From the NCBI GenBank assembly GCA_031972835.1, contig DALYDX010000001.1:5852-62946 (forward strand): a stretch of DNA of 57,095 bases, in the 5' to 3' direction. Within the stretch, counting starts at the first letter, position 1, and every line of letters begins with the position of its first letter. This document shows, one piece after another, positions 9,330-10,372 of this stretch. This stretch comes from Minisyncoccota bacterium (lineage in GTDB: Bacteria; Patescibacteriota; Minisyncoccia; Phycocordibacterales; UBA9973). A program made the translations under genes and the position numbers. The notes under the pieces were generated by a model. That model was not told the origin of the DNA. It searched no databases and was given only the letters and a program-made list of their open reading frames with translations.

Positions 9330-9488
9330 CATTGTATCTGTGTAAAATAATTTTAGGTATGTTTTTAGACAAACATCGCTATGTGAAAAACGAGAGAAGC
9401 AATGTCTTTAAACAACACGGGCGCTGTGCAAAACAAGAACTTACCTGTTTTTAGACAAAGGGGGCCGTGTGAGAAACAATCTCTGCTG

Positions 9489-9530
9489 TGTCATGTGCCC
9501 GTGTAAAAAGCGGGCACACTTTTAAGACAA
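9489..9530 (+). repeat. expanded class-A box carrying an inserted GC hairpin (copy 2)
   Basis: tgtc-atGTGCCCGtgtaaaaagCGGGCACa-cttttaagacaa. It is also 42 nt long and near-identical to 9288-9329. Confidence 0.6.
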
Positions 9531-10372
9531 GACAATGTGTGTGTAAAACAAGGGAAAAAGTGTTTTTAGACAATGCTAGTCATGTGAAAAACAAATTGTT
9601 TTATGTCTTTAAACCATGTTGCTACTGTGTAAAACAACATAAGATGTGTTCTTAGACAATCCATTAGATGTGCAAAACAATGGTGGTGATGTCTTTAAAC
9701 AAACAGCGGTGTGTGAAAAACAAAAATGAAATTGTTTTTAGACAATGGATGGATTGTGTAAAACAAAACACTGCCTGTCTTTAAACAAGATAAATTTTGT
9801 GAAAAACAATAGCCAATTTGTTTTTAGACAAGTTTATAACTGTGAAAAACAAGGGATAATATGTCTTTAAACAAAATAATGAGTGTGAAAAACAATACCG
9901 CCACTGTTTTTAGACAACCGTCTGCGTGTGAAAAACAAGAAATTAAATGTTTTAGACAAGAGACCGATTGTGAAAAACAAGTTGGATTCTGTCTTTAAAC
10001 AAAGAATTGTATGTGAAAAACAAAGGTAATTGTGTTTTTAGACAATGGAGTGGCTGTGCAAAACAAACGATATCGTGTCTTTAAGCAAAGATTGAACTGT
10101 GAAAAACAAAATCCGCCGTTTTTAAAACAATTCAATGCATGTGTAAAACAATCGACTACCTGTTTTTCAGACAAGGATTTGTATGTGAAAAACAAAGGTA
10201 ATTATGTTTTTAGATAATGGATCAGTTGTGTAAAACAACAGAGATGATGTCTTTTAAGCAAATGCTTTTACGTTGCGACTATATCTTTAAGCAAGGTGTT
10301 CCATGTAAAAACAAAATTAAAGGTGTTTTTAGATAAGTTTGTTGATGTGAAAAACAATTGTAAAGTTATCAA

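Follow-up and report, generated by a model that had tools for sequence, protein, structure and literature searches.

Within a ribosomal protein operon of a 57,095-nucleotide stretch of DNA from a Minisyncoccota bacterium (GenBank assembly GCA_031972835.1, contig DALYDX010000001.1, positions 5,852 to 62,946 of the forward strand; hereafter the window), two kinds of short repeat alternate with one another downstream of a gene encoding a 441-amino acid protein. What is this array, and why does one of its two repeats come in two variants that take turns along it? A sequence-only reading of the locus had proposed that each two-spacer unit of the array folds in RNA as a loop closed by a stem between the halves of neighboring repeats, and that the RNA is cut within those repeats. 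Our analysis indicates that the repeats are, very probably, a guide-RNA array of TIGR-Tas, a CRISPR-like system described in 2025, and there is every likelihood that the TIGR-Tas locus belongs to a bacterium of Candidatus Paceibacterota, within the candidate phyla radiation. The mechanism put forward by the sequence-only reading is a correct rediscovery, since both the system and its stem-closed unit, cut in the middle of the repeat, have already been published.

TIGR arrays are built from two alternating repeats of 8-12 nucleotides (nt), termed edge and loop, together with 9-nt spacers (Faure et al. 2025, PMC12045711). They start from an edge truncated at the 5' side and finish in an edge truncated at the 3' side plus a terminator, their repeats open with a box D (UG) and close with a box C (CCA), and the loop repeat is A-rich (PMC12045711). 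RNA sequencing places the ends of the mature guide RNAs (tigRNAs) in the middle of two successive edges, such that each consists of a half edge, spacer A, the loop, spacer B and another half edge, and in the cryo-electron microscopy structure the two edge halves pair with one another (PMC12045711). Every feature in this list that can be read from DNA is found in the window, where the class-A box of the sequence-only reading corresponds to the edge repeat and its B box to the loop repeat.

The edge box lies between units, has the sequence TGTxTTTAyACAA and, at 13 nt, is 1 nt longer than the published range for repeats. It occurs as variant A (TGTTTTTAGACAA; x = U, y = G) and variant A' (TGTCTTTAAACAA; x = C, y = A). 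The loop box is 12 nt long (TGTGNAAAACAA) and alternates with the edge boxes. With spacers of exactly 9 nt throughout the array, the resulting unit of half edge box, spacer, loop box, spacer and half edge box is 43 nt long. Both repeats have the form UGU...ACAA, so a CAA variant of box C is common to edge and loop, as the published rule requires; among the related loci (numbered L001 onward), the more distant L007, L011 and L013 have ...CCA in both repeats. The array ends are truncated as well. A two-unit mini-array at 7743-7835 (+ strand) starts with the 5'-truncated edge box TTTTTTAGACAA and ends with the 3'-truncated edge TGTAA and a hairpin, and the main array ends with a 3'-truncated edge, TATCA, that is fused to an intrinsic terminator with a T run (10367-10400, +), for which a terminator-like site of 10 pairs followed by T7 is reported at 10371-10393.

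By manual parsing and a covariance model (R1), the main array at 9252-10371 (+) contains 24 tigRNA units, located at 9252, 9324, 9367, 9410, 9453, 9525, 9568, 9611, 9654, 9697, 9740, 9783, 9826, 9869, 9912, 9954, 9997, 10040, 10083, 10125, 10169, 10212, 10289 and 10331 and measuring about 41 nt from arm to arm. R1 recovers all 24 of these units, and in a scan of the window it places main-array units on the + strand only and detects no further units beyond the main array and the mini-array, whose two units it finds at 7748-7788 (40.1 bits) and 7794-7828 (20.1 bits). The span of 9360-10088 (+) to which the sequence-only reading assigned the alternating A and A' boxes is the best-preserved part of this arrangement; it is not the full extent, which is 9252-10371 plus 7743-7835. 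A search of the array against Rfam gives no match at gathering thresholds, and at E values up to 1 it gives only sub-threshold terminator-like leader matches.

The alternation of the two variants is borne out by the manual parse. We scored pairing between the 3' half of each edge box and the 5' half of the next. At the variable position (y-x), 22 of 23 units are compatible with pairing across the unit, as had been claimed, with 10 G-C, 8 A-U and 4 G-U; the single A.C belongs to the first unit, a degenerate one with which the stop codon of tas overlaps. Another A.C junction, the only internal one, flanks the defective unit at 10248-10294 (+), which is also the only unit without a loop box and has two A'-type edge boxes 20 nt apart. 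Scored inside single boxes, this position forms a Watson-Crick pair in 1 of 19 cases, a G.U pair in 11 and a mismatch in 7. The proposed lack of complementarity between the halves of a single box is correct for A', which has a true C.A mismatch, and incorrect for A, in which a U.G wobble is possible. Where A directly follows A (9905/9948 and 10161/10205), the first case is the one for which a G:U wobble had been described, and that wobble is real. When the order of the boxes is shuffled with x and y kept linked, the observed pairing has P = 0.0096 for the variable position and P = 0.002 for the whole 4-base pair (bp) stem, and the observed covariation score is reached by none of 500 shuffles. 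Sliding the partner by 1-3 columns lowers the paired fraction from 95.7% to 28-57%, and the final unit (AGATAA...TATCA) retains its pair as U-A. Because each stem joins the halves of two boxes, a change in one half needs a match in the neighboring box and not in its own, and the pattern of A (U..G) and A' (C..A) is the period-2 solution, in which the stems are alternately G-C and A-U.

Covariation with double changes at all four stem pairs is likewise obtained from a covariance model of these units and those of homologous arrays, the analysis by which the sequence-only reading had proposed to judge the stem. Our family set holds 136 distinct units from eight arrays, namely the window and seven related loci. 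The y-x pair is AU in 57 of these units, GC in 56, GU in 17 and something else in 6. At the next stem pair there are 120 AU and 9 GC, the box C/D pair is CG in 124 units and UA in 3, and the outer pair is AU in 106, GC in 3 and UA in 1, such that all four positions carry compensatory double changes. Box-order shuffles within each array give P values that range from 0.01 to below 5e-5, with z = 9.6 overall. On seven loci outside its training set, the model identifies 54 units, in which 91.6% of the stem cells are paired and each of the four pairs shows double changes, although the alignment of these independent units was fitted to the model and hence leans toward structure. Fully compensated stems include AGGC/GCCU (L002), GGAC/GUCC and GAAC/GUUC (L004), AGAU/AUCU (the window, L008 and L009) and AAGC/GCUU (among L004, L016 and L002). 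In L004, alternation is found at another stem position (AAGCAA..TGCTT versus AAACAA..TGTTT), and in L016 nearly every unit has a stem of its own. The distant relatives L007 and L011 (about 30% identity) show what is usual for TIGR, a single edge repeat that is complementary to itself.

Could the alternation instead be a historical residue of the tandem duplication of an 86-nt, two-unit block, with its compensation inherited rather than selected? Tandem Repeats Finder does report periods of 86 and 214 in the array, related arrays share and reshuffle units, and one clear diverged duplicate exists, in which units 10012 and 10184 are alike at 15 of 18 spacer bases. However, spacers two units apart are no more similar than spacers over all pairs (4.9 versus 4.78 of 18), and on this lag analysis block duplication was rejected as the origin of the array. 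Furthermore, the alternation persists almost perfectly in L008 and L009, whose Tas proteins are 51% and 46% identical to that of the window, which occupy other genomic contexts and which have no exact 9-nt spacer in common with the window. Departures from alternation are nearly always compatible with pairing (18 tolerated G.U versus 4 A.C among 138 units), the hybrid edge boxes at 10119 (U..A) and 9489 (C..G) fit their neighbors, and L004, L016 and L002 have arrived at the other compensated stems listed above. We therefore judge inherited compensation to be very unlikely. The alternation is old, and it is not left over from copying.

It is also highly improbable, in our estimation, that whole A and A' boxes pair in the precursor as a 12-nt imperfect duplex serving as the substrate of a double-strand-specific RNase, with the 4-bp stem as just a part of it. 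The sequence does show A and A' to be complementary at 10 of 12 positions, and RNAfold predicts nested A:A' helices for 9690-9831 (-35.4 kcal/mol, z -3.9), but the outer half of such a duplex follows automatically from the alternation and the inner stem and is not independent evidence. The box center is U-rich in both variants, which leaves a conserved U.U/U.U mismatch at a place where complementarity would be expected of a selected duplex. In addition, each box would be needed by two neighboring duplexes simultaneously, and L016 and L004, with their unit-specific stems, cannot make box-to-box duplexes. Finally, although the boxes recur every 21-22 bp, about two helical turns, and the reverse complement of A' (read from the sequence) differs from A at the central two bases only, it is extremely improbable that they are DNA sites in a pseudo-palindromic protein-binding array such as a centromere or iteron, with A and A' as one site in opposite orientations, because both variants keep a strand-specific T-rich center and 3' AA and therefore are not inverted copies, because the variant present depends on the neighboring box, which a per-site binding model does not predict and which the sequence-only reading had rightly called hard to explain by a palindromic protein site, and because the array ends in truncated boxes fused to terminators on one strand and is always accompanied by a Nop-domain RNA-binding protein.

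That protein is encoded by the tas gene at 7927-9252 (+; 441 amino acids) and comprises a small N-terminal domain and a Nop-type RNA-binding domain (about residues 190-441). The Pfam family Transposase_20 (IS110-type C-terminal domain) matches it with E 1.6e-5 and is present in 21 of 21 homologues. Its best sequence match among solved structures is 9mty, a complex of TIGR-TasR, tigRNA and target DNA (E 2.9e-10 for the single sequence, 2.2e-16 for a profile), and a Foldseek search with the AlphaFold model (pLDDT 78.9) returns 9mty (E 1.8e-6) and the TasH structure 9w04 (E 8.2e-6), with probability 1.0, followed by the IS621 and ISCro4 bridge-RNA recombinases and then, weakly, by Nop5 (3pla, 3id5). 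For the comparison with IS621 and ISCro4, the profile match to 8wt6 has E 1.7e-4. Neither island protein is matched by PADLOC, and no relative of Tas was found in viral contigs; in the phage collection, there were only matches at E 0.3 to Bacillus phage 'transposases'.

The N-terminal domain is small, being made up of one helix, four strands and two helices, and across 21 homologues the first 100 residues contain no invariant Asp, Glu or His. A TasH-type HNH domain with its catalytic His and zinc site was not found: the His at the HNH catalytic position is not conserved, and most zinc ligands are lost, with only Cys30 retained in the window protein. When the domain is modelled alone, HNH proteins rank first in Foldseek with E values of 0.44 or worse, and one homologue, P0020, has HNH_5 at E 0.007, below the cutoff. 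Nor was a TasR-type RuvC fold with its set of Asp and Glu residues found, given that there is no RuvC match and no invariant acidic residue. Thus, Tas is probably nuclease-dead, as judged from its sequence. Because the N-terminal domain lacks conserved catalytic residues, the most likely activity of the complex would be DNA binding without cleavage, for instance in repression. TasA and dead TasR proteins of candidate phyla radiation bacteria bind DNA without cleavage and act as transcriptional repressors (10.64898/2026.09.09.750476).

At the other end of the protein, D408, Y410 and H411 are invariant in the 21 homologues, and the last long helix is followed by a 25-residue tail. In SpTasH, a C-terminal Tyr/His dyad (Y289, H296) on an extended loop processes the precursor (PMC13421893), and D408/Y410/H411 may correspond to it. 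The Nop domain also contains a beta-rich insertion of about 80 residues (residues 310-390, with strands at 327-387 in the model), the length of which varies among homologues. By analogy with insertions in stem-loop Tas proteins, it may contact the longer closing stem.

Several observations weigh against identification of the locus as TIGR-Tas or against the closing stem. Box C reads CAA in place of the canonical CCA. The cut site, the mature length and transcription are predicted from homologous systems, with the unit itself pointing to about 43 nt as opposed to the canonical 36 nt. The NCBIfam model NF052498 (TIGR_Tas_endo) matches Tas with E 7.9e-16, which speaks for the identification, but with 58.7 bits over residues 194-310 only it does not reach its cutoff of 100; on this score, the protein is a diverged relative of the modelled endonucleases rather than an equivalog. 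A search of the 57-kb window for self-targets, using the 18-mers formed by the reverse complement of spacer A followed by spacer B and by spacer B followed by the reverse complement of spacer A, gave no match with 2 or fewer mismatches, and its six matches with 3 mismatches are about what its own estimate of chance predicts; spacers A and B themselves show no mutual complementarity. Independent events are fewer than the family counts suggest, because the units of one array are paralogues and L001, L002 and L005 have spacers in common. RNAalifold finds no consensus structure for the 136 units, so the stem is not predicted in naked RNA, and single units fold no better than shuffled ones (z -0.5 to -1.5). 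The stem-closed two-spacer unit of the sequence-only reading is thus upheld by covariation, in the window, in the eight arrays and in the seven further loci, and not for free RNA. Since a 4-bp stem is too weak to form in naked RNA, it is to be read as held within the Tas ribonucleoprotein, in line with the published account, in which the protein is where the edge pairs form.

Taken together with homologous systems, these data suggest how the TIGR-Tas locus would work. The + strand of the array would be transcribed with tas or just after it, and each 43-nt unit would become one tigRNA, consisting of a 5' half edge (U-AyACAA), spacer A, the loop box UGUGNAAAACAA, spacer B and a 3' half edge (UGUxU-U). 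By homology, a Tas dimer would bind each unit; one protomer would hold the loop box by its box D (UG) and box C (CAA), and the other would hold box C of the upstream edge box and box D of the downstream edge box. The two edge halves form a 4-bp stem of C-G, A-U, y-x and A-U, as the covariation observed here shows. As in homologous systems, the precursor would be cut in the U-rich center of each edge box, and the two spacers would guide the complex to an 18-bp DNA site, with one spacer for each strand.

Some edge boxes carry an inserted hairpin. In the first, at 9288-9329 (+), TGTCA is followed by a 9-bp GC-rich hairpin and then by TTTTTAGACTA; a terminator-like site is reported at 9293-9317, and the fold has an energy of -16.3 kcal/mol (z -3.4). 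The second, at 9489-9530 (+) inside the array, has the identical hairpin between other flanking spacers. Between loci the hairpin stem varies, with compensatory changes relative to the relatives in 6 of 10 pairs. Hairpin edges are also present in L008 (5289 and 5449), L009 (1300), L005 (5343 and 5674) and L004 (5354 and 5837), and the inserted hairpins are GC-rich with a conserved GUAAAAA-type loop. Because the U tract 3' of the hairpin is short in L008, L009 and L004, the hairpin may not be a terminator. In the hairpin edge boxes of the window, L005, L008 and L009, the halves are complementary within the box (C..G or U..A), unlike those of ordinary edges.

The relatives also offer a view of how such arrays change. 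The segments 10012-10090 and 10184-10260 of the window are the diverged duplicates of a two-unit segment mentioned above, and between them the 5' arm went from AAACAA to AGACAA with its partner UGUUU unchanged, such that A-U became G.U. L001, L002 and L005 have many spacers in common in differing order, and in L005 the unit at 5983 joins the spacer A found in unit 5854 to the spacer B found in unit 5610. Such reassortment of the two spacers between units suggests that recombination through the loop repeat is one route by which arrays change. The window has only one 9-mer (ATTGTTTTA) in common with L001, L002 and L005. The final window unit (10331-10371) has the usual C-G box C/D pair swapped for U-A (AGATAA ... 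TATC). The same swap, with a TATC-type 3' arm, is seen at 5805 in L008, the second-to-last unit detected there, and at 1915 in L009, the last unit before an internal terminator; it is conserved in these three arrays, which have no common exact 9-nt spacer.

The window is a segment of bacterial chromosome, the closest relatives of which are metagenome-assembled genomes labelled Candidatus Paceibacterota. Its S10 ribosomal protein operon (rplC, rplD, rplW, rplB, then rpsS, rplV, rpsC and onward) is split by an island at 7345-10545, between the end of rplB at 7344 and the start of rpsS at 10546. The island contains an open reading frame (ORF) of 105 amino acids at 7422-7739, the mini-array, tas, and the main array with its terminator. 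The 105-amino acid ORF has no match in Pfam, NCBIfam or PADLOC and is missing from all of the related loci. Directly after its stop codon and upstream of tas, the mini-array occupies 7743-7857 when its own terminator is included, the latter being a terminator-like hairpin at 7831-7857 (+) read from the sequence ACCCCCGAAAATTTCGGGGGTTTTTAT; in L001, an array of seven units stands at the equivalent position. A putative tas promoter lies at 7872-7899 (+; TTGCAT, 16 nt, TAATGT), a proposal based on sequence comparison; the motif is also conserved upstream of tas in L001, and the site is absent from the list produced by a consensus promoter scan. Past the island, a promoter-like site at 10470-10498 (+; TTGACA, 17 nt, TAGTAT, with an upstream TG) matches the consensus at 10 of 12 positions and would, as a putative promoter, restart transcription of rpsS and the remainder of the ribosomal operon. 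By tblastn, the placement of the TIGR-Tas island between rplB and rpsS is kept in L001, L002, L005, L004/L006 and L003, with Tas identities of only 45-77%. This conserved placement suggests a long-resident, vertically inherited chromosomal system. Elsewhere, the window encodes a transfer-messenger RNA at 32078-32464 (-), with the tag peptide AKTFGKVTSPYFGMADLALARA, and a tRNA-Ile with the anticodon UAU at 37641-37715 (-), an isoleucine tRNA that is unusual for bacteria.

Which of these features are new? Term searches of those consulted papers that use the terms edge repeat and loop repeat found no two compensating edge variants alternating in one array, and the nearest published statement describes stem-loop arrays with unit-specific stems, some of which have overlapping stems and zero linker (10.64898/2026.09.09.750476). 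In the TIGR literature that we searched, the alternation, the 43-nt unit with a 4-bp stem, the hairpin edges and a probably nuclease-dead Tas with an S10-operon site are not described. We regard these features, the last being a probably dead nuclease domain at a conserved S10-operon site, as some of the features of a variant of the system. More tentatively, and with more doubt than conviction, we suggest that the edge 'repeat' is a junction of unit-specific half-stems that acts as a register device, that the clade bridges dual-repeat and stem-loop TIGR, and that the system, with its nuclease-dead Tas and its conserved place in the S10 operon, does not serve a mobile element as a weapon but is an RNA-guided DNA binder domesticated by the host. 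If this were so, alternation or unit-specific stems would be selected such that each tigRNA obtains a Watson-Crick closing stem, and keeping the edge box from folding on itself and imitating a loop box would set the reading register for Tas binding and cleavage.

The alternation is in effect a natural compensatory-mutation experiment, the outcome of which, a stem that joins neighboring boxes, agrees with the cryo-electron microscopy structure. In ordinary TIGR arrays, covariation cannot separate pairing within a repeat from pairing between neighbors because the edge repeats are identical. The methods text of TIGRFinder sets the reading phase from complementarity within the repeat, a rule that may behave poorly on arrays such as the one in the window. 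A longer unit, of 43 nt with a 4-bp stem, appears to be in natural use, which is relevant to guide design. On how arrays evolve, which is an open question in the field, the comparison shows near-complete turnover of spacers between relatives with the stem retained, reassortment of spacers A and B by way of the loop repeat, and survival of slips in the alternation only when they still pair. That diverged genomes retain a probably nuclease-dead Tas at the site between rplB and rpsS suggests a host function.

Among known systems, CRISPR arrays resemble the locus in having a repeat-spacer array beside an effector gene and a long precursor that is cut within the repeats. Unlike CRISPR arrays, with their single kind of repeat of about 25-36 nt, the window has two kinds of 12-13 nt, 9-nt spacers in pairs and no cas genes. 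The bridge RNAs of the IS110 family (IS621, ISCro4) are similar in that a homologous RNA-binding domain is involved and split guides are held in loops. However, a bridge RNA is a single two-loop RNA rather than an array, and neither the DEDD recombinase domain of the IS110 enzyme nor its serine recombinase-like step is present here. Archaeal box C/D small RNAs with Nop5 come closer, with two guide segments that are each bounded by box C and box D, terminal boxes joined by pairing of the RNA ends, and a Nop-domain dimer. They differ from the window's system in that the latter has no k-turn, L7Ae or fibrillarin, its units are arrayed head to tail, and its guides are 9 nt long and, in characterized TIGR systems, pair with DNA.

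Dual-repeat TIGR arrays with TasR, TasH or TasA (Thermoproteota TaTasR, Salicola phage SpTasH and Flavonifractor FpTasA; PMC12045711) share with the window an adjacent Nop-domain Tas, alternating edge and loop repeats, 9-nt spacers, bounds formed by box D (UG) and box C, an A-rich loop, truncated end edges with a terminator, and covariation-backed pairing of successive edge halves. Compared to these arrays, the window has a unit of 43 nt rather than 36 nt, a 13-nt edge repeat with a closing stem of 4 bp rather than 2 bp, a box C of CAA rather than CCA, and two alternating, mutually compensating edge variants rather than one. Some of its edges carry an inserted hairpin, the N-terminal domain of its Tas lacks catalytic residues, and the locus is chromosomal, inside the S10 operon, and not on a mobile element.

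Stem-loop TIGR arrays (Peromyscus-gut TasA and the candidate phyla radiation PateTasR and CsTasR; 10.64898/2026.09.09.750476) are alike in other respects. Each of their two-spacer units has complementary flanks of its own to close it, the stem sequence varies from unit to unit within one array, some arrays are reported with overlapping stems and zero linker, and they too occur in candidate phyla radiation hosts with nuclease-dead effectors. One difference is that the effector encoded here is not a TasR with an inactive RuvC domain. In addition, the flanks in the window are only 4-5 nt long and abut in a regular 13-nt box that is common to two units. Because they abut inside this shared box, the window array keeps a strict 43-nt period and has the appearance of a dual-repeat array.

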